Under the pieces are notes generated by a model. That model was not told where the DNA came from. It did no database searches and saw nothing but the letters and a program-made list of their open reading frames with translations. A stretch of 44,707 bases of DNA from Escherichia phage phiEco273, in the sequence record PP786691.1; one strand, written 5' to 3'. Positions 4,106 through 44,428 of the stretch are shown here, in pieces. The position numbers and the translations under genes were made by a program. The first letter of the stretch is position 1; the number at the start of each line of letters is the position of its first letter.

Positions 4106-4290
4106 CAGTCTCAGACGAGGGGGGTGCCAGACCCCCCGTCTAGTCTGAAAGACTGGGGTGCTGTCCCGCTGTCCCGCTCCTCGCCAGGCCGCGTCATCCG
4201 GGGCGGGACAAGGGTGCTGTCCCGCTTTGTCCCGCCCCTGGTCTGTCCCGCTTTTTGTCCCGCTTAGTTTATGCAGTTTTATTGCATAAC
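4106..4290. repeat. Repeat element copy 1: imperfect GC hairpin (GACGAGGGGGG...CCCCCCGTC) followed by 6 direct and 1 inverted copy of GTCCCGC and TTATGCA(G/A)T motifs
   Basis: Direct reading; about 85 percent identical over ~185 bp to 32399-32585 in the same orientation. Confidence 0.8.
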
Positions 4291-8193: not shown

Positions 8194-8382
8194 ATGGCTA
8201 TATTCTTTGTTTTATTTCGTTGCCGTATTACCGGCGACGAGCAACCGGAAATTGTTATGAATCAAAACTGGAATTGCTGCTGGATGCAAGCCCGAGGACT
8301 GGCGGCTACCATGAACAATGCCGCTAAGCGGGCCAATGTTGAACATGACTATTACATTGCTCAATTTACACGGGTGGAATGA
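8194..8382 (+). CDS. small hypothetical protein
   Basis: 62-aa ORF, Cys/Trp-rich; weak. Confidence 0.25.
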   Translation: MAIFFVLFRCRITGDEQPEIVMNQNWNCCWMQARGLAATMNNAAKRANVEHDYYIAQFTRVE

Positions 8383-9812
8383 TGGCGATTAAACCAAAAC
8401 GTAAGACGCAATCCGGCAGCAATACGGAACACTCATTACTCGGGCCATCCGGTGCTAAAAAATGGATGGGTTGCCCCGCCGCCCTGGTGGTAGAAAAAGA
8501 TATCCCGAACGAATCCGGGCAAGCCGCGATTAACGGTACGAGTATGCACACCGTATCGGAGGTGGTGCTAAACCGCATTATCGCCGGTGAGAAGCTGATA
8601 ACCGCGAAGACGTATAAAGGGTGCTACGTCGAGAACGAAGGCAAGGGGCCAGTAAAGGCACACCCGAAAGCACCGAAAGGCGGCGTACTGGTCAACGACG
8701 ACATGGTGAAACAGTGCGACGCGTACATCGACCACTGGCGACCGCTCATCGAAGTGGCGGAGTTTATCCAGCTTGAGATGCGCGCCGATCTGACCCGCGT
8801 CCTTCACTCAGGCTACGAGATCGACGGCAACAGGATTAAAACGTTCGGTACTGCCGATATGGTCATGGTCATGAAAAAGACCGATGGAACGTACATGCTG
8901 ATTGTTGGCGACCTGAAGACCGGGCGGCATAAGGTCGAGGCGAAAGAGAACAAACAGCTTATGTTGTACGCGCTCGGCCTGCTGCGCAAGCTGCAAACTA
9001 TGTACGACATTACGACCGTGCGCCTGGTTATCTTCCAGCCGTATTGCGGTGGGGCGTCGGAGTGGGATATTTCGGTAGAAGCGCTGGAGATATTCGCGAA
9101 GTTTGCATCCAAGCGCGCTATTGCCGCACTGGAGGCGTATTCCCGAGGCAAGAAGGGGCTTACCCGTGCCGACTTCCGCCCCAGCGTTGATGCGTGCCAG
9201 TGGTGCCGATTTGCGGATCAGTGTAGTGCCCGCGCTAAGGCCGCAATCGACACGATGACACACCCAACGGCAACCGACGAAGACCTGGGCGACGACGTGA
9301 GTATTGCGACAGAGGAAGAATGCGCCAACCATGACCGCAATATGGCCCGCGAAGCCAGGAAGGCGGCACGACGTGCGAAGCGTGGTAAGAAAGAAGCGGC
9401 CCACGGTGCTATGAGCGCTGCGGAACTGCGCAAGGCTTATGAAGGCCTGGACGCAATGCGCCAGCACATCAAGGCTATCGAGTCCGCGGTATTCAAGGCG
9501 GTCATGGCGGGCGATGGCGAATCGCTGGGCCTCAAGATGGTTGCCGGTAAGGAAGGGATCCGTAAGTGGGCGGACGAGAGCGAAGTGATTGAAATCTTCA
9601 CGAAGGCCCGGATCAAGCGCGATGTGATGTACAAAGAAACATTGCTCAGCCCTACGGATGCCGAGAAGGTACTGAAGGACGAAAAACCGAAAGTGTGGGC
9701 GAAGCTGTGTGCTAAAATCACGCGCGCACCCGCCAAACCGGTGTTAGCCCCAATCGACGACCCTCGCCCTGCGTGGTCGGAAGCTACTGACGAGGACTTA
9801 AACAATGAATAA
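8379..9812 (+). CDS. Cas4-like PD-(D/E)XK exonuclease (DUF2800-like) with C-terminal Cys cluster
   Basis: 477 aa; N-terminal LLGPSGAKKWMGCPA motif, D/E-K core (IVGDLKTG), CQWCRFADQC cluster; adjacent to SSB-like gene as in known phage replication modules. Confidence 0.65.
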   Translation: MMAIKPKRKTQSGSNTEHSLLGPSGAKKWMGCPAALVVEKDIPNESGQAAINGTSMHTVSEVVLNRIIAGEKLITAKTYKGCYVENEGKGPVKAHPKAPKGGVLVNDDMVKQCDAYIDHWRPLIEVAEFIQLEMRADLTRVLHSGYEIDGNRIKTFGTADMVMVMKKTDGTYMLIVGDLKTGRHKVEAKENKQLMLYALGLLRKLQTMYDITTVRLVIFQPYCGGASEWDISVEALEIFAKFASKRAIAALEAYSRGKKGLTRADFRPSVDACQWCRFADQCSARAKAAIDTMTHPTATDEDLGDDVSIATEEECANHDRNMAREARKAARRAKRGKKEAAHGAMSAAELRKAYEGLDAMRQHIKAIESAVFKAVMAGDGESLGLKMVAGKEGIRKWADESEVIEIFTKARIKRDVMYKETLLSPTDAEKVLKDEKPKVWAKLCAKITRAPAKPVLAPIDDPRPAWSEATDEDLNNE

Positions 9813-19493: not shown

Positions 19494-19496
19494 GAA

Positions 19497-19520
19497 AAGG
19501 GCCGTATGGCCCTTTCTTTT
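19497..19520. terminator. bidirectional intrinsic terminator (AAGGGCC-GTAT-GGCCCTT flanked by A/T runs)
   Basis: Sits exactly between convergent stops at 19493 (+) and 19521 (-). Confidence 0.7.
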
Positions 19521-23476: not shown

Positions 23477-26400
23477 CTAATACAACCCTTCCCCTCCGGG
23501 TAGGTTAACCGTAACCCCATTCCCGTTAATCTGCACGGTGTTATTTTGTCCGTTAAAAGCGAACTCACCACTGTTAGCGTACAGCCTGCCGCGCACCGTC
23601 ACCTCGTTAAACTCCGCGGCCCCGCCTTTCTGGATACGCCAGCCACGTGACCCGGAAACGAAGTTATTTGATTGCAGCGTGTCCGTGATCTGTGCAAAGT
23701 TGATTGACGCATCCTTGATGCGTGCCGTGTCGATGTACACTGCACCACCGTCCACAATAAACGCGGACGAAAGCGTCCCATTCGACGGGTGCATGATGTA
23801 GAACTGGTCCGCCTTGAACGCAATACGTGATTTAACTGCGGTACCAGACGTCACAACGGAAAGCTGCATACCCGCATCATAGTAAGTCCCGTTATACGTC
23901 ACGCCAGCCTTAAGACTGTATGTGGCACTACCACCAGAGTGGTTAAACGAGGACGTCATCTTCTGCTCGATAGCGGCGGACTGCTGACCGAACTGTGTCG
24001 CGACCTGGGTCTTATATTCCGCCAGCGCTCCCGCCACGTCTGCGGTTGCCGTTTGCACCTGCTGGATGGCAGCTTCCTGTTCCCCGAACTTAGCGGCAAC
24101 AGTTTGCTGGTACTGGGCGAATGCTTGCTCGTGTGTGCTTTGCGCGGTCTGCAGCGTGTGGATTGATGCTTCCGCGTCATCAAGGCGCGTGCCGATCAAC
24201 GTTTCCAGTTGTGAGACTGCCTTGTTGGCGTCTGCCGCCACGTTATACGCCACCTTGATTTCAGCATAAATCCCTTTGTACTCGGCGCGGGCGTTGAATA
24301 GCTGCTGGGCGTCGGTGAGCATTGACTCATAAATGCCTTGCGGGATCGTGTTAATAGCTTCCTGGAAGTGTTTACCATCCTCGGAAGTCAAGAACTCGTC
24401 ATCAAGCCCCTTCATGTACTCGTCAACTTTGTCACTCACCTGGCCTTCGAACGGGGCGGACCAGTCCGACAGGTTGCCGATTTTATCCGCTACACGGGCG
24501 CGCAACTGCTGGTAAATTCCGAACTCAAGCGACGTTTGCGCGTACTCCGCGCCCGGATATGGGACGTTGGTAAGGAATTTCCATTCAGTCTCACCAGTCT
24601 TGCGCACTTCAAGCTCGGTGTATGAGATATCAGTCGCAGCGTTGTTGTGATTCCACTTCCATAGGATCTGGTGTAAACCTGAAATCGCGTTGGTGATGAT
24701 TGGCGCATTAAGCCCTCCGAGGCGACCTTCCACCGGCGTGATTGCGGAAGACACCCACGGAGATGAAATCTCGCCCATACCGATCGCACGGACGCGTGCC
24801 TGATAGTTACCGGAGAACACGTTAGGGATGTGTGCCCCATTCGACGCCGTGCGCGGAATATTCACCCAGTCGTTGCCCCACTGGATTTCCATATTCTGTA
24901 AGCTGGTGCGCCGCCACTGTATTTCATACACCACGGCGTCCTTCACCGGCGGGAAAACAATATCCACGTTGGTGATTAGCTGGCCTTGCGATGAAATCTG
25001 CGACGGGGTTATGGTCACGGATTCCGGCCCCTTCATTACGCCGTCAGGCACTTGCGTAAAGATGCCTGGGTCAAGGCGCGCGCCATTATCAACGGCATCA
25101 TATTTGCTATCGTTGTATTCAATCCCGCGCACCGAAAAAGTGCTGGTAGAGTCGTCATATTCCAGGTCGGTTATGCGGAACTTCTGCAACTGGATATCGT
25201 TGCCATCAACGCAAAACGGCTGGTCTGGAATCGGGTCGGCATCCAGTGCAGTTTTTAGCGTAACCTTGTTGCCGTTGACGCTGGCGATCTCGCGAGTCTC
25301 CACATTACCGCTATCGGTGCGCACCAGGAACTTATCGCCAGGGCGGAACGTGATTTCGCTGTCCGTGTTCAGCACGGTACGCGTTCCGGGGTCTGACAAC
25401 AGTCGACCGCCACGAGTCTCGAATCCGCCAGAAATATTAGTATCTGCGATCGCGACTACGCTACCAGGGATAAAGAATAACCCCTCCATGCCCACCTTAA
25501 AGCTAACTTGCTGGTCAAGCTGGTTGGAAATTAGCGCCCAGTGCCCGCGGCGTTGCGCTTCAGATTCACGCGTACAGCCGATCGCCGTAATATCAAGACG
25601 GTTAATCTTATGGCGGCGTACCAATTCGACACGTTGCCCCGTTGCGATGGCATCTTCATAGTGGTTCTTCGGGTTGCCGTATGCTACTGCGAACGTGGAG
25701 TACCGAGTTTTCTGGCTACCGGACGCGTAGTCGAAGCGCCCATCAATAACCGATGCGTTGGTGATAGTGTGCGATACCGCCGCGACCGGCTGGTCACTGA
25801 CGATATTCAACATCTGATTACCCCACCAGGTCATTCCGGCAAAGATAGCGGCTAAATCCTTAAGCACTGTCCAGGCATCGGTCTGCGACTGGATATACAT
25901 ATCATTCTTAAATCTGATTTCCTGCCCACCGTTGCCGTCACTGACCAGTTGATCGCAGCGCTGCGCAATCTGGTAAAGCGCGTACCGGTTCAACATTTGC
26001 GGCTTGATCCGGCGACCGAGGCCGAAGCGCTCAGTAATACAAATATCATACCAGTGCCACGCAGGGTTATCCGTCCATGCGCGTTTAAACGTCCCATCCC
26101 AGTTTCCAGAATAGGTATGCCTAATCGGGTCATAGTTGTTCGGCACCAGCACCTTACGTCCTTTGCACTTGATGGACACGCGCGGGATGTTCTGGAACGC
26201 TTTGGCGTCGAACTCCACGAACAACAGCGCGGTTAGCGGGTATCGCAGGCGGGCGTCGATAATCTCAGTAATGGATTGCACCCGGATATCATTAACCACT
26301 TTCGCCGATGTGGAGTCTGCCGTTATGCGGTGCACCTCCACGCGCCATCCGGTATTCACGCTCGCCGGTAACTCAATGCGGTGGTCGCGCTCGTACAGCG

Positions 26401-29649: not shown

Positions 29650-29685
29650 AAAAAAGCCCCCACGATGGATGTGAGGGCCATTTTA

Positions 29686-32398: not shown

Positions 32399-32712
32399 AG
32401 TCTCAGACGAGGGGGGCCATTGACCCCCGTCTAGTCTGAAAGACTGGGCTTTGTCCCGCCTGTCCCGATCGGCTAAAACCCGCGGCAGCACTGGCGGGGA
32501 CAGGGGTGCTGTCCCGCTTTGTCCCGCCTCATTCTGTCCCGCTTTTTGTCCCGCTTACTTTATGCAATAAAACTGAATAGACATTCACATTTTGGGGGCG
32601 GGACAGATCGGGACAGCACCCCTGTCCCGCTTTTAATTTATGCAATTGTGGTGAGTAAATATGCAGTTTTAGAGGTGCGGGACAAAACGGGACGTCCCGC
32701 CTGTCCCGCTCC
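32399..32712. repeat. Repeat element copy 2 (GC hairpin + GTCCCGC array, extended by additional direct/inverted heptamers and TTATGCA motifs) filling the GT-chaperone / tape-measure intergenic gap
   Basis: Direct reading; ~15 heptamer copies; first ~185 bp about 85 percent identical to 4106-4290. Confidence 0.8.
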
Positions 32713-32713
32713 G

Positions 32714-33037
32714 TTATGCGGGGTTCTGCCGCGCCATTTCATCCAGCGCAACGCGTTCCATTAGCTTGATATCTTTAAACGCACGTTGCGCGTTTTCGAT
32801 GCCGTGCATATTAAATAACCATTCCAGTACGCCGTAGTCGATGCCGTATGCGCCACCGAATCCGGTACGCCATTGCGTGGCGCAATCCGTGAAGACTGCG
32901 ACTACCTTCGCATTGTCGGGCCATAGTGCAACCGGCGGGCAAACATCTTCGGGGGCCGCACCCCATAAACTTGCGGCTAAATCTTCGGAGGGTGGCGGCG
33001 GGCCATAAAAGCGTCGCGCCGCCTCAATTAGTTTTTT
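32714..33037 (-). CDS. tail assembly chaperone -1 frameshift extension (GT-type fusion product)
   Basis: Slippery heptamer A_AAA_AAC (33037-33031) immediately before the G-like stop; the -1 frame stays open for ~105 codons to TAA at 32716-32714 with no internal start signal. Confidence 0.6.
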   Translation of the reverse strand, partial: KKLIEAARRFYGPPPPSEDLAASLWGAAPEDVCPPVALWPDNAKVVAVFTDCATQWRTGFGGAYGIDYGVLEWLFNMHGIENAQRAFKDIKLMERVALDEMARQNPA

Positions 33038-33405: not shown

Positions 33406-33430
33406 TAAAAAAGGGGCCGTACTGGCCCCA
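33406..33430 (-). terminator. intrinsic terminator after major tail protein gene (GGGGCCAGTACGGCCCC + TTTTTT on minus strand)
   Basis: Strong hairpin followed by T6 on the coding strand. Confidence 0.65.
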
Positions 33431-36233: not shown

Positions 36234-36262
36234 CTATAAAAAAGGCGGGCTTATGCCCGCCC
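36234..36262 (-). terminator. intrinsic terminator after major capsid gene (GGCGGGC-ATAA-GCCCGCC + TTTTTT on minus strand)
   Basis: Direct reading. Confidence 0.6.
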
Positions 36263-39096: not shown

Positions 39097-39125
39097 AAAA
39101 AGGGGCCATTACGGCCCCTTAATCA
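39097..39125. terminator. bidirectional terminator (GGGGCC-ATTAC-GGCCCC flanked by A5 / T-rich)
   Basis: Direct reading between 39094 (+ stop) and 39109 (- stop). Confidence 0.55.
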
Positions 39126-42161: not shown

Positions 42162-43547
42162 TTAGTAGAAGTCTACAGTTGGAACAACGGCGATCGGACG
42201 AATCACAGGGAACAAGTGCGCAATAGGGTAGCCAGCCGCGTCATTCATGTGGTCCACACCGGCAGTTTTATCCGGCTCGCCTTTCTTCAGGTCGTACACC
42301 TGCTGTTCCAGACATTTCGCTAGTGTAGGGCATTTATCCAGGTTGACAAAATACTGGCGCACGCCCTTCGAGTTGCACATCATCGTATTCATCGCGATAA
42401 GTCTGTCTTTCACAGGCGGGTTAACGCTGTCGTATTCCACCTCGAAGCCCGCGTCTTCCAGTTGCGCGATATCAGACGAGGATGCGTTAACAGTCTTACG
42501 AGACTTGCCACTGCTATCCGGGTAAACGACAACCTTACCGGCAGCGCAATGATCTGGGTAGCGCTCCTCGATCGCCTCAATCATAGCCGGTGTGTCAAAC
42601 AGGTCCACAAATTCATCCACCGCGTGAATCTCGTCGCGGAACTCCTTGTTCTCGGTGGTACGCTGCCGTCTTACATACACGACCGCCGCCATTTTCGTGA
42701 CGTTAAAGTCCATACCGATAATCAGCGTGTCTTCCGGCTGCACTTCTTCGGTGCTTGCGTTCTCCTCACGGTTAAACATCTTGTATACCGCGCCCGACGT
42801 AAGGTTAACAAACATACCGTTCAGGTACGCATCGATCAGGTTAGCCGGGTACTGACTGCGAAGCGTGTCGATAAAGTCTGCCGGTAAATGGTGGTTGTCG
42901 GTGGTCTTCGCCCGGATCAGGCGCTTTTGGCTATCCTTCTCCACCTCGAAGATTTGATACATCGCCCGGAAGCCTTCCGGCGTGGACACGATGACAAACT
43001 GGCGGACAAGACCTGCACGCAGACGACCGAGCAATTTGTGATAAGCCGCCATTGCGACGTCTTGCTTCGTGGTGTCGAACTCGTCGGCAACAATCCACGC
43101 GGCGTTAACCCCGATTAGGCGGGTGTAGTTCTCCATTGACTCGCAGATAACGCGGGTCCATTTTCCTTTCACCAGAACGCTATAGATCTTGTCCTGCTTG
43201 TTGAACTTCCACCGGAAGCCCGCCTCGTCGAAAGCCTTCTCCAGTTCCGGATACATGATTTTAACCAGGAGTGGGATAGTCGGCTCGGTCACGATGCCGT
43301 CATGCCCCGGGTTCAGTGTCAGAAGCTGGATGACCTTTCTCGCAGCGACCCACGACTTTCCACCACCGAAGCCGGAACACAGGCCGAGGATTTTAGTCTT
43401 CGTGTCGCGCAGTAGTTCCACCTGGTGCGGAAGGCAATCAGGCTGGTACAGGCGGACGGCCTGCGCAACGCGCGTCGGGCGTGGTGGTCGGTTGCGCTTT
43501 GCGATCGCGCGCTCCAGTGCGCGGTGTTCTGCCGCATAGTTACGCAT
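42162..43547 (-). CDS. terminase large subunit
   Basis: 461 aa; Walker A-like GLCSGFGGGKS, Walker B-like AWIVADEFD, C-terminal nuclease-like region. Confidence 0.8.
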   Translation of the reverse strand: MRNYAAEHRALERAIAKRNRPPRPTRVAQAVRLYQPDCLPHQVELLRDTKTKILGLCSGFGGGKSWVAARKVIQLLTLNPGHDGIVTEPTIPLLVKIMYPELEKAFDEAGFRWKFNKQDKIYSVLVKGKWTRVICESMENYTRLIGVNAAWIVADEFDTTKQDVAMAAYHKLLGRLRAGLVRQFVIVSTPEGFRAMYQIFEVEKDSQKRLIRAKTTDNHHLPADFIDTLRSQYPANLIDAYLNGMFVNLTSGAVYKMFNREENASTEEVQPEDTLIIGMDFNVTKMAAVVYVRRQRTTENKEFRDEIHAVDEFVDLFDTPAMIEAIEERYPDHCAAGKVVVYPDSSGKSRKTVNASSSDIAQLEDAGFEVEYDSVNPPVKDRLIAMNTMMCNSKGVRQYFVNLDKCPTLAKCLEQQVYDLKKGEPDKTAGVDHMNDAAGYPIAHLFPVIRPIAVVPTVDFY

Positions 43548-44098
43548 TATTCGCCCTGGCCTTTTCCGGTAGGTTCGACAACGACGTCGCCGTTATCATC
43601 TTCGTCGTCATCCAGTGGGATATCGTCGCGTACGCCGTGGTTTGCTTTAAGCAGGAACGTAGCGAAGCCCGCCGCGATGGTCACGCCGCCAGCTTCCATC
43701 AGGAAAGTTTTCTGCAACTCCATTGCGTCAGCCATCGCCTCGGCGAACTCCTCATGTGCACGCGCCCAGCGGTACAGGCAGGCAACGCCCACACCGATTT
43801 CCGCGGCAAATCTGCCGAAGGTTGGCATTTTGTTGCGGGGAATTACTTGCGCAGCGCCTTTATCGGAGTAATTGACCTGCCAGGCGTCGGCGTCGGCAAA
43901 ATAGCGACGAAGCTGGTCGCAGTAAACAGATCGGTAGTCAGTAGGGCGTCCACATTTGCCGCCTTTACGGCGCTTTCCGTACTCGATTTCAGGTCCGAGA
44001 TTGGTATGCTCAGTTTGCTCGCCTGGTTTACGGCGCGGGGTTACTGCTACTCGTCCGTCCAGTTTGGCGCGTCGGCCCTTAACTTTGATTTCTGCCAT
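43547..44098 (-). CDS. terminase small subunit
   Basis: ORF 43547..44197; probable start ATG 44098; basic N-terminal DNA-binding-like region (GRPTDYRSVYCDQL...), acidic C-terminus; overlaps terL start. Confidence 0.55.
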   Translation of the reverse strand: MAEIKVKGRRAKLDGRVAVTPRRKPGEQTEHTNLGPEIEYGKRRKGGKCGRPTDYRSVYCDQLRRYFADADAWQVNYSDKGAAQVIPRNKMPTFGRFAAEIGVGVACLYRWARAHEEFAEAMADAMELQKTFLMEAGGVTIAAGFATFLLKANHGVRDDIPLDDDEDDNGDVVVEPTGKGQGE

Positions 44099-44168
44099 GA
44101 TATATGCCCTTTTGTTCATATGCGCCGACCATCGGCAACATAGGAGACGGCCCTGCCATCTAATGGGG

Positions 44169-44197
44169 ATTATAACAGGCACAAAAAAGCCCACCAA
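44169..44197 (-). promoter_or_regulatory. candidate late promoter: -35 TTGGTG (44197-44192), 17-bp spacer, extended -10 TGTTATAAT (44177-44169)
   Basis: Perfect TATAAT with TG extension read on minus strand upstream of terS. Confidence 0.4.
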
Positions 44198-44212
44198 ATC
44201 GGCGGGCTGGGA
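44183..44212 (-). terminator. intrinsic terminator ending the junction-spanning operon (AGCCCGCC-GATTT-GGTGGGCT + TTTTTT on minus strand)
   Basis: Direct reading; overlaps -35 of the candidate late promoter. Confidence 0.5.
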
Positions 44213-44215
44213 GGG

Positions 44216-44428
44216 CTAAACGGCGCGACCGTAGTATCGGGTTAACATGCTTTCTACTTCGCGTATTGCGCCTTCTGTGTAGCGTATTTGCGATAGTATC
44301 TCGATCCGTTCGCTGATAGACATGCCTACCGCCGCTGCCGTTCGTTCGAATCGGCGCAAGCCTTCGAGTTGTTTGCGTAATTCCTTCAGGCGTGTGGCCT
44401 GCGTGCTCATGAATACTTGTCTAATCAT
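44216..44428 (-). CDS. hypothetical protein (70 aa)
   Basis: ATG overlaps upstream stop (ATGA). Confidence 0.4.
   Translation of the reverse strand: MIRQVFMSTQATRLKELRKQLEGLRRFERTAAAVGMSISERIEILSQIRYTEGAIREVESMLTRYYGRAV

Follow-up and report, generated by a model that had tools for sequence, protein, structure and literature searches.

Where does the transcription of the late genes begin in a lytic siphophage, and what does the late transcript carry at its start? The question is raised by the DNA ahead of the small terminase gene, terS, in Escherichia phage phiEco273 (sequence record PP786691.1), which was analysed as a single stretch of 44,707 nucleotides, here called the window, to which all positions refer unless another genome is named. 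On its minus strand, a hairpin followed by six thymines abuts an extended -10 promoter, and an initial annotation had read this pair as the end of one operon and the start of the next. The feature proves real and ordinary: an intrinsic terminator directly adjoins an extended -10 promoter, in a design that is shared with phage T1. What is new relative to that annotation is a two-hairpin leader, which lies between the promoter and terS and is an undescribed RNA motif common to Dhillonvirus and the Guernseyvirinae. Taken as a whole, the locus is best explained, and with fairly good confidence, as a compact boundary between two transcription units in a lytic siphophage that relies on host RNA polymerase.

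The terminator and the promoter ahead of terS

Relatives of terS were gathered from IMG/VR and from GenBank phages, and form eight lineages, namely Dhillonvirus, two groups of divergent Dhillonvirus-like contigs (L016/L036 and L037, the latter being IMGVR_UViG_3300045988_050407), Klebsiella 37P2-like phages, the locus L041, Salmonella PhiSTP2-like phages, Kagunavirus and Jerseyvirus. The same order of elements, terminator, -10, first hairpin (HP1), second hairpin (HP2), Shine-Dalgarno (SD) sequence and terS, is found in 41 loci from all eight, in which the identity of terS falls to about 31% (range 31–56%).

The terminator hairpin, AGCCCGCC-GATTT-GGTGGGCT, occupies 44208-44188 on the minus strand, 8 nt past the stop codon of a 70-amino acid open reading frame (ORF). 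Its stem of 8–9 pairs, six of them G-C, encloses a loop of 3–5 nt, where a GC-rich stem of at least 5 bp and a loop of 3–8 nt were looked for, and the six-T run at 44188-44183 shares its first T with the last base of the hairpin. In a pattern scan this was the best terminator-like site on the minus strand in the last 4.7 kb. In its GC-rich stem, short loop, T6 and position just past a stop codon it resembles the intrinsic terminators known from E. coli and from E. coli phages; the one difference is that its 3' arm and T-run also serve the next promoter, as -35 and spacer, and otherwise it is in no way unusual. At least seven of the eight lineages keep a terminator at the end of the transcription unit and maintain its stem through compensatory substitutions (AGCCCGCC/GGTGGGCT, GGCCCACC/GGTGGGCT, GCCCGC/GCGGGC, AGCCCTC/GAGGGCT and AACCCGCC/GGCGGGTT). 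L041 has only a weak hairpin at this position, with a terminator-like match about 125 nt further upstream. The retention of the stem while the flanks diverge supports the prediction of a functional intrinsic terminator, and so the reading of a minus-strand hairpin with T6 that closes the upstream operon is upheld.

The promoter element TGTTATAAT matches the extended -10 consensus at all nine positions and the -10 hexamer at all six. Exactly 17 nt, as the initial annotation had it, separate TATAAT from the hexamer TTGGTG, of which two T lie in the terminator loop and GGTG in the 3' arm of the stem. That annotation's description of the promoter as near-consensus holds for the extended -10 and fails for the -35, which matches at only three of six positions; a consensus-like -35 is optional for this class. 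It was because of this poor hexamer that a generic promoter scan did not list the site, which ranks third of 1971 sigma70-like candidates in a simple position-weight scan. The motif TGNTATAAT is found once in the 44.7-kb genome, with 0.76 copies expected over both strands, and chance alone would put about 0.001 correctly oriented copies into the 118-nt intergenic gap. The hexamer TATAAT is scarcer in the genome than expected (8 found, 13.7 expected). From the -10 to the terS ATG at 44098 there are 70 nt, which predicts a leader of about 63 nt. A flawless TGnTATAAT, 17 bp from a weak -35, is typical of extended -10 sigma70 promoters; a C-rich discriminator (CCCC), and a transcript that would start straight in a hairpin, set this one apart.

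A sigma70-type promoter for late genes had been called unexpected. This does not stand, as no genes for an RNA polymerase, a sigma factor or a recognisable transcription regulator are present in the annotations of the relatives Oekolampad and EE09 (L103). Host RNA polymerase is thus needed for all transcription, and a sigma70 promoter is what would be expected. Lambda PR', for example, is a constitutive sigma70 promoter. In the literature on Dhillonvirus and the Guernseyvirinae (Jerseyvirus, Kagunavirus) no transcription-start or promoter data were found, only coarse RNA sequencing, which in Kagunavirus places structural and replication genes alike in a 'middle' class (PMC12645636).

Conservation of the terminator-promoter module

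From one lineage to another, the stretch that separates the terminator from the -10 is unalignable. The -10 itself is retained as TATAAT, with TACAAT in Jerseyvirus and TATACT in L037, and its second-position A and sixth-position T are invariant in 23 sequences. The conservation of TGTTATAAT in eight lineages amid unalignable intergenic DNA supports its prediction as the sigma70 promoter of terS and the structural genes, and so bears out the claim that late transcription would begin here.

The claim that the -35 lies in the terminator stem is right for the window and wrong as a general design. In L037 a TTGGCG sits inside the stem, 17 bp from the -10, and the overlap is kept only there and in Dhillonvirus. 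L016 has a 9-nt insertion and has lost the -35 altogether, and in the Guernseyvirinae a hexamer with four of six matches (TTGCCT or TGTACA) directly past the T-run replaces the one in the stem. The TG extension occurs in exactly three lineages, those with a poor -35; outside the window's own group it is carried by L016, L037 and, beyond the eight lineages, T1. Since the extended -10 class needs no good -35, TTGGTG would be at most a minor contributor. Judged from these alignments, the hexamer in the stem is secondary, and the conserved functional unit would be a terminator followed by a -10-driven promoter.

The same arrangement, with its 'transcripton' design, is met ahead of terS in phage T1 (L104; Drexlerviridae). 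Here a terminator, AACCCGC-TCCG-GCGGGTT with T7, is followed by ATGCCTGCAATATGGTAAAAT; past the T7 come GCCTG and TGGTAAAAT, about 30 nt before terS. T1 thus retains a terminator and an extended -10, TGnTAAAAT, and the GCCTG that it shares with the Dhillonvirus spacer suggests common descent of the module. Unlike the window, T1 has a short unstructured leader with neither HP1 nor HP2, and its -10 overlaps the T1/TLS repeat ATAGCAC...TTGnTAAAA, a 21-nt repeat (ATAGCACnnnTTGnTAAAA). T1 carries homologous terminator-promoter modules at 8322-8395, where T7-ATGCCTGCAATATGGTAAAAT precedes terS, and at about 25000-25043, with T8-CGCCTGTATAAT ahead of a J-like tail gene. The window also has a second module of a terminator and then an extended -10, on the minus strand at 946-860, where AAGCCCGG-TTAATT-CCGGGCTT with a T-run is followed by TGATATATT, about 30 nt ahead of the phosphoesterase ATG at 860.

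A conserved two-hairpin leader RNA

In all lineages but T1, two hairpins lie downstream of the -10. Their loops are constant while the stems vary: HP1 carries A/U-GG followed by G, and HP2 carries UGG closed by A-U, with a single UGA variant among 46 distinct leader sequences. The inner stem of HP2, by comparison, reads GCCGA/UCGGC, GCGUA/UACGC, UGGA/UCCA, UUAUGA/UCAUAA, UCUGA/UCAGA or UAUGA/UCAUA according to lineage. The two loops lie 20 nt apart in 23 of 24 sequences, and in the remaining one the distance is 21 nt. The stem of HP1 begins 4–9 nt past the -10 in 23 of the 24, and 2 nt past it in L041, where the stem was extended greedily. That a conserved RNA structure keeps a fixed distance to the -10 is good evidence for a transcript start at that point.

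MAFFT and covariance-model alignments misregistered the HP1 of Dhillonvirus, which is shorter, and they were replaced by an N-padded, loop-anchored alignment, A4, which MAFFT left ungapped. In A4, standard pairs fill 95.2% of 456 pair cells; column shuffles give 65.6 ± 1.5% (none of 500 reached the observed value), and with slid partners only 21–56% of cells are paired. Both sides change in 18 of the 19 pairs. Folds of single sequences at minimum free energy recover both hairpins in six of the eight lineages. G.U pairs outnumber A.C mismatches by 42 to 3 overall, and by 13 to 2 when each lineage is represented once. An excess of G.U so far above A.C means that pairing is kept on the sense strand of terS only, as would be the case for an RNA structure and not for a protein-bound palindrome in duplex DNA; a hairpin in single-stranded DNA of the same strand is left as a formal alternative. 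Covariation thus shows a conserved RNA structure on the sense strand, at the start of the predicted late transcript.

The covariance model of the leader finds one copy per genome, in the window (E = 3e-13, with the next match at E = 2.3) and in each relative, and has no match in T1 or HK022. A search of Rfam 15 matched nothing on the leader, with cut-offs of E ≤ 10 for the window and E ≤ 1 for seven divergent loci. Weak matches to isrK and isrB fall on terminators, far below the gathering scores, and were set aside. In GenBank records the leader region is unannotated apart from one 'terminator'. In L037, at about 572-645, an extra mini-hairpin, CGA-UGG-UCG, stands between HP1 and HP2, so that the core GAUGGUC occurs twice in tandem.

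The conserved triloops and the fixed 20-nt spacing imply, as far as comparison can tell, that the element would be read by a protein or by RNA polymerase. Candidate readers are RNA polymerase itself, in the manner of put, a protein of the phage or of the host, and the ribosome. CsrA was rejected on sequence, the loops (AGG-G and UGG-U) being without GGA, and a transcription attenuator was rejected for want of a U-run past HP1 or HP2. The SD sequence lies outside the hairpins and is not sequestered. In Salmonella phage ER11 (L019, at 1312-1350) and in many Jerseyvirus records the annotated start of terS has been translated through HP2, as MRYDGHTHLREDC-MKL; aligned with other terS proteins, these have their true start at the downstream MKL.

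The late operon and its internal terminators

From terS to the tail fibre the late operon spans 24.6 kb, from 44098 to about 19520, and within it four strong intergenic terminators are found on the coding strand, past the spanin, major capsid, major tail and tape-measure genes (Table 1). Their T-runs run into, abut or overlap the signals that start the next gene. Inside the operon no consensus promoters were found, and past the internal terminators there is no room for one; between 19400 and 39399 sigma70-like sites are depleted on the coding strand (3 found, 13.5 ± 3.5 expected). With internal terminators and no internal promoters, the tail genes would depend on read-through from the terS promoter. 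Elsewhere in the window, a strong intrinsic terminator at 2182-2153 likewise has a T-run that reaches the next SD or ATG.

Table 1. Positions of the features at and around the terS promoter, with the basis of each call.
Feature	Position	Strand	Basis or remark
Last gene of upstream unit, 70 aa, phrog_20931	44216..44428	minus	TAG stop 44218-44216
Intrinsic terminator, stem AGCCCGCC/GGUGGGCU, loop GAUUU, T6	44183..44208	minus	hairpin pattern and conservation in relatives
-35-like hexamer TTGGTG (3/6)	44192..44197	minus	terminator loop and 3' arm, 17 bp from -10
Extended -10 TGTTATAAT (TG 44177-44176, TATAAT 44174-44169)	44169..44177	minus	sequence, scan rank, conservation
Predicted transcription start (T or A, 7-8 nt past -10)	44161..44162	minus	predicted from sigma70 spacing; HP1 starts here in most lineages
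Leader hairpin HP1, AGAUGGC-AGG-GCCGUCU, 7 bp, triloop WGG then G	44145..44161	minus	folding and covariation
Leader hairpin HP2, outer UAUGU/GCAUA, bulged U, inner GCCGA/UCGGC, triloop UGG closed by A-U	44119..44142	minus	folding and covariation
Shine-Dalgarno AAGGG	44107..44111	minus	8 nt ahead of terS ATG; outside hairpins
terS, 183 aa, first gene of structural operon	43547..44098	minus	resembles P22 gp3 and Sf6 small terminases weakly, under the Pfam cut-offs
Internal intrinsic terminator past spanin genes	39100..39120	minus	terminator scan
Internal intrinsic terminator past major capsid gene	36243..36262	minus	T-run runs into next SD and ATG
Internal intrinsic terminator past major tail gene	33413..33429	minus	abuts next SD and ATG
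Internal intrinsic terminator past tape-measure gene	29655..29679	minus	T-run overlaps next ATG
Bidirectional terminator, end of late operon	19495..19516	both	terminator scan
Copies of ATTGGTTGCA	3379, 3912, 3943, 4033, 4314, 4349, 7161, 13691, 16633, 16650, 18305/18317, 22215, 38284, 38298		

A separate signal marks other units of the genome. The 10-mer ATTGGTTGCA occurs 15 times with at most one mismatch, where 3.45 copies are expected, and each copy is intergenic and upstream of a gene in the same orientation. It is often paired and embeds TTGCAx, which resembles a -35, and TATATT, which resembles a -10. It is probably the phage's own early or middle promoter, or a regulator motif. No copy is present at the terS promoter, which is a class separate from the ATTGGTTGCA-type promoters, and this is a firmer basis for temporal control than occlusion.

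Likeness to known systems and rival explanations

The leader may serve to protect the 5' end of the late mRNA while being recognised by a factor, or it may act in antitermination across the four internal terminators, in the manner of put; protection combined with recognition is ranked higher. For protection, the model is provided by the 5' stabiliser hairpins of the ompA type, which the leader resembles: its predicted 5' end leaves 0–2 nucleotides unpaired, another hairpin follows, and the ribosome-binding site is free. For antitermination, the leader would be a cis-acting processive element like HK022 put or a nut site, one that allows read-through of the four terminators. Put in its strongest form, the leader would be an undescribed class of cis-acting RNA, a put analogue, which makes host RNA polymerase, alone or with a factor, resist the terminators of the operon. 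We regard both versions as unlikely, although the arrangement of the operon has its appeal: four canonical intergenic terminators and an end terminator on the coding strand, T-runs that reach the next SD or ATG, a lack of promoter-like sites inside the operon, and an element of two stem-loops in fixed geometry that sits at +1 of the one late promoter and occurs once per genome. HK022 putL and putR are likewise transcribed directly behind a sigma70 promoter and lead a long operon with terminators, and putL too consists of two stem-loops, from +3 of PL (PMC9378689). However, put is about 73 nt long, has bulges and a triple helix, and binds the zinc-binding domain of the beta' subunit, whereas the leader, from +1 to about +43, is some 43 nt of simple stems of 7–10 bp with a putative role. 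No similarity of sequence or structure to putL or putR was found, the model having no match in HK022 or Rfam, and size and architecture being different (PMC9378689). Moreover, partial read-through of terminators commonly sets the ratio of capsid to tail proteins and needs no antiterminator. A protein of Kagunavirus phage 26 named 'early transcription antiterminator' lends the idea no family support, as it has no Pfam match and belongs to a PHROG of unassigned function. Protection is thus set above antitermination because T1-like phages cope without the leader, because partial termination is a normal device of stoichiometry and because the element is smaller and simpler than put.

The systems of lambda give no closer parallel. 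As with PR' and Q, a single strong sigma70 promoter would drive the late region through internal terminators, but the phage lacks a Q homologue, an obvious Q-binding element and a promoter-proximal terminator equivalent to tR' before terS. Compared with a nut site, the leader has triloops (WGG, UGG) in place of the GNRA-like pentaloop of boxB. A boxA-like CGCUCUGA is found only in Kagunavirus, where it lies inside a stem, while the boxA of a nut site is single-stranded, and no N-like gene was recognised.

Several points weigh against the account preferred here, in which a predicted terminator and promoter are followed by a leader that protects and is recognised. The pair counts are inflated, because alignment A4 was fitted by hand to the structure proposed, and the automatic covariance-model alignment placed the HP1 of the window out of register. 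The fold energy of the window leader is unexceptional (z = -0.8), and that of the terminator (local fold -15.8 kcal/mol, z = -1.7) is unremarkable taken alone. A plain stabiliser hairpin needs neither conserved loops nor a second hairpin at fixed spacing, and ompA-type stabilisers accept any loop, whereas the triloops (WGG, UGG) and the 20-nt spacing are conserved across genera. The late region of T1 is likewise rich in terminators, yet it has no leader, which tells against antitermination as well; because T1 combines many late terminators with the lack of a leader, the correlation with terminators cannot separate the stabiliser from the antitermination reading. Finally, the start site, the promoter strength and the efficiency of termination are all predictions.

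It was also proposed that occlusion by upstream transcription, a repressor or an activator keeps the promoter silent early and releases it late, through the overlap of terminator and -35. A poor -35 (3/6) and a C-rich discriminator (CCCC) are indeed frequent at regulated promoters, upstream transcripts would end inside the promoter spacer, and the ATTGGTTGCA-type promoters elsewhere in the genome are of another class. Extended -10 promoters, however, work without a -35 or an activator. The overlap that such control would use is not kept in L016 or the Guernseyvirinae, and the terminator shields the promoter from upstream transcription instead of exposing it. No operator-like or activator-like site and no conserved dyad or repeat was found upstream of the -10, and no regulator gene was recognisable. 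Control of this kind is therefore not borne out, and we consider it improbable.

Least probable of all, and by our estimate only faintly so, is that the inverted repeats act as DNA, as a packaging (pac) or terS-binding site or as an operator. The repeats stand just upstream of terS, several reference genomes open at TATAAT, and in phage SPP1 pac overlaps the terS promoter region. A review of the SPP1 genome is available (PMC6316719). The pairing statistics argue otherwise: a duplex palindrome would not need the single-strand pairing seen in the ratio of G.U to A.C, strand-specific pairing argues against a protein-binding site in duplex DNA, and the most conserved parts are the loops, which are not palindromic. 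Small terminases of the P22 and Sf6 type use a pac inside terS. Nor does the suggestion that this is a plausible neighbourhood for the initiation of packaging gain support from mapped genome ends. PhageTerm analyses describe the Dhillonviruses Opt-212 and UDS3lw as headful packagers and give no location (PMC9022532, PMC13348001). The sole published terminus, a 'COS 5'' end of EE09 predicted by PhageTerm (ATCTTAAGGG, position 1 of its record), aligns to about 16662 in the window, within the replication module, with a tandem ATTGGTTGCA pair directly ahead of it and a terminator-like hairpin directly after it. The terminal repeat of T1 starts 8.4 kb from terS. The four reference genomes that open exactly at TATAAT were rejected as physical ends and are read as annotation convention, since record starts in the region are scattered over the terS ATG, points 22 or 44 nt upstream of it, TATAAT and, in Jerseyviruses, several further points. 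The COS call for EE09 conflicts with the headful calls for other Dhillonviruses. A resemblance between the reverse complement of ATCTTAAGGG and CCCnTTAGAT, between the -10 and HP1, is due to chance, the real site being at about 16662.

A proposed course of transcription

In the account that we prefer, transcripts of the upstream unit, which would cover the helicase, small ORFs, lysis genes, phosphoesterase and 70-amino acid ORF, end at the Rho-independent terminator and are probably released at 44183-44180, within the spacer of the next promoter. The sigma70 holoenzyme of E. coli would then initiate at the extended -10 TGTTATAAT, with a start near 44161. This promoter would be the main, and probably the sole, promoter of the operon from terS to the tail fibre. 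The late mRNA would open with 0–1 unpaired nucleotides and HP1, with HP2 following 1–3 nt on. As in the ompA paradigm, HP1 at the 5' end may protect the long late mRNA from decay that depends on RppH and RNase E at the 5' end. The triloops WGG and UGG, with their 20-nt spacing, would be read by a protein or by RNA polymerase, and the SD sequence and start codon would be left free for translation. The timing of late expression more likely depends on the class of the promoter, the copy number of the template and the leader than on a repressor here.

Genome context

The 1.3 kb around the terminator-promoter site is 90–96% identical (about 94%) to 156 phage records, nearly all of them Escherichia Dhillonvirus, a group of HK578/JL1/SO-1-like lytic siphophages with genomes of 43–46 kb. 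The upstream operon had been described as crossing the junction of the window, and this is confirmed by a phosphoesterase gene of 380 amino acids, whose translation runs uninterrupted through 860->1 joined to 44707->44425 when the two ends are connected. As this gene is intact, the window is a circular permutation of a complete genome. In the annotated relative Oekolampad, the rightward unit holds a helicase, small ORFs, two holins, an endolysin and the phosphoesterase; terS, terL and the portal, capsid, tail and fibre genes come next on the same strand as this lysis and phosphoesterase unit, and the replication module is leftward. The 70-amino acid ORF is accessory. It is missing in L003, L005, L009, L014 and EE09, in which the stop of the phosphoesterase gene directly precedes the same terminator.

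Two arrays of a short, iteron-like repeat, (C)TGTCCCGC(TT), in both orientations, were also noticed in the window. One, at 4150-4270, lies in the early leftward unit and the other, at 32448-32716, between the tail chaperone and tape-measure genes.

Meaning for the phage group

The pair of terminator and promoter is routine, yet it fixes the likeliest start of late transcription in a very common group of coliphages, and since Dhillonviruses are represented in the BASEL collection and in therapy panels, a likely late start is useful for engineering. The leader motif is compact and supported by covariation, it is present in hundreds of sequenced phages of Escherichia, Salmonella and Klebsiella, it is annotated nowhere, and it is placed where the expression of the late genes could be controlled. 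Were it an element for antitermination or for the loading of a factor, it would explain how a late operon studded with terminators is expressed from one host-type promoter with no known regulator. In the case of antitermination, virulent siphophages would possess a compact functional counterpart of HK022 put.

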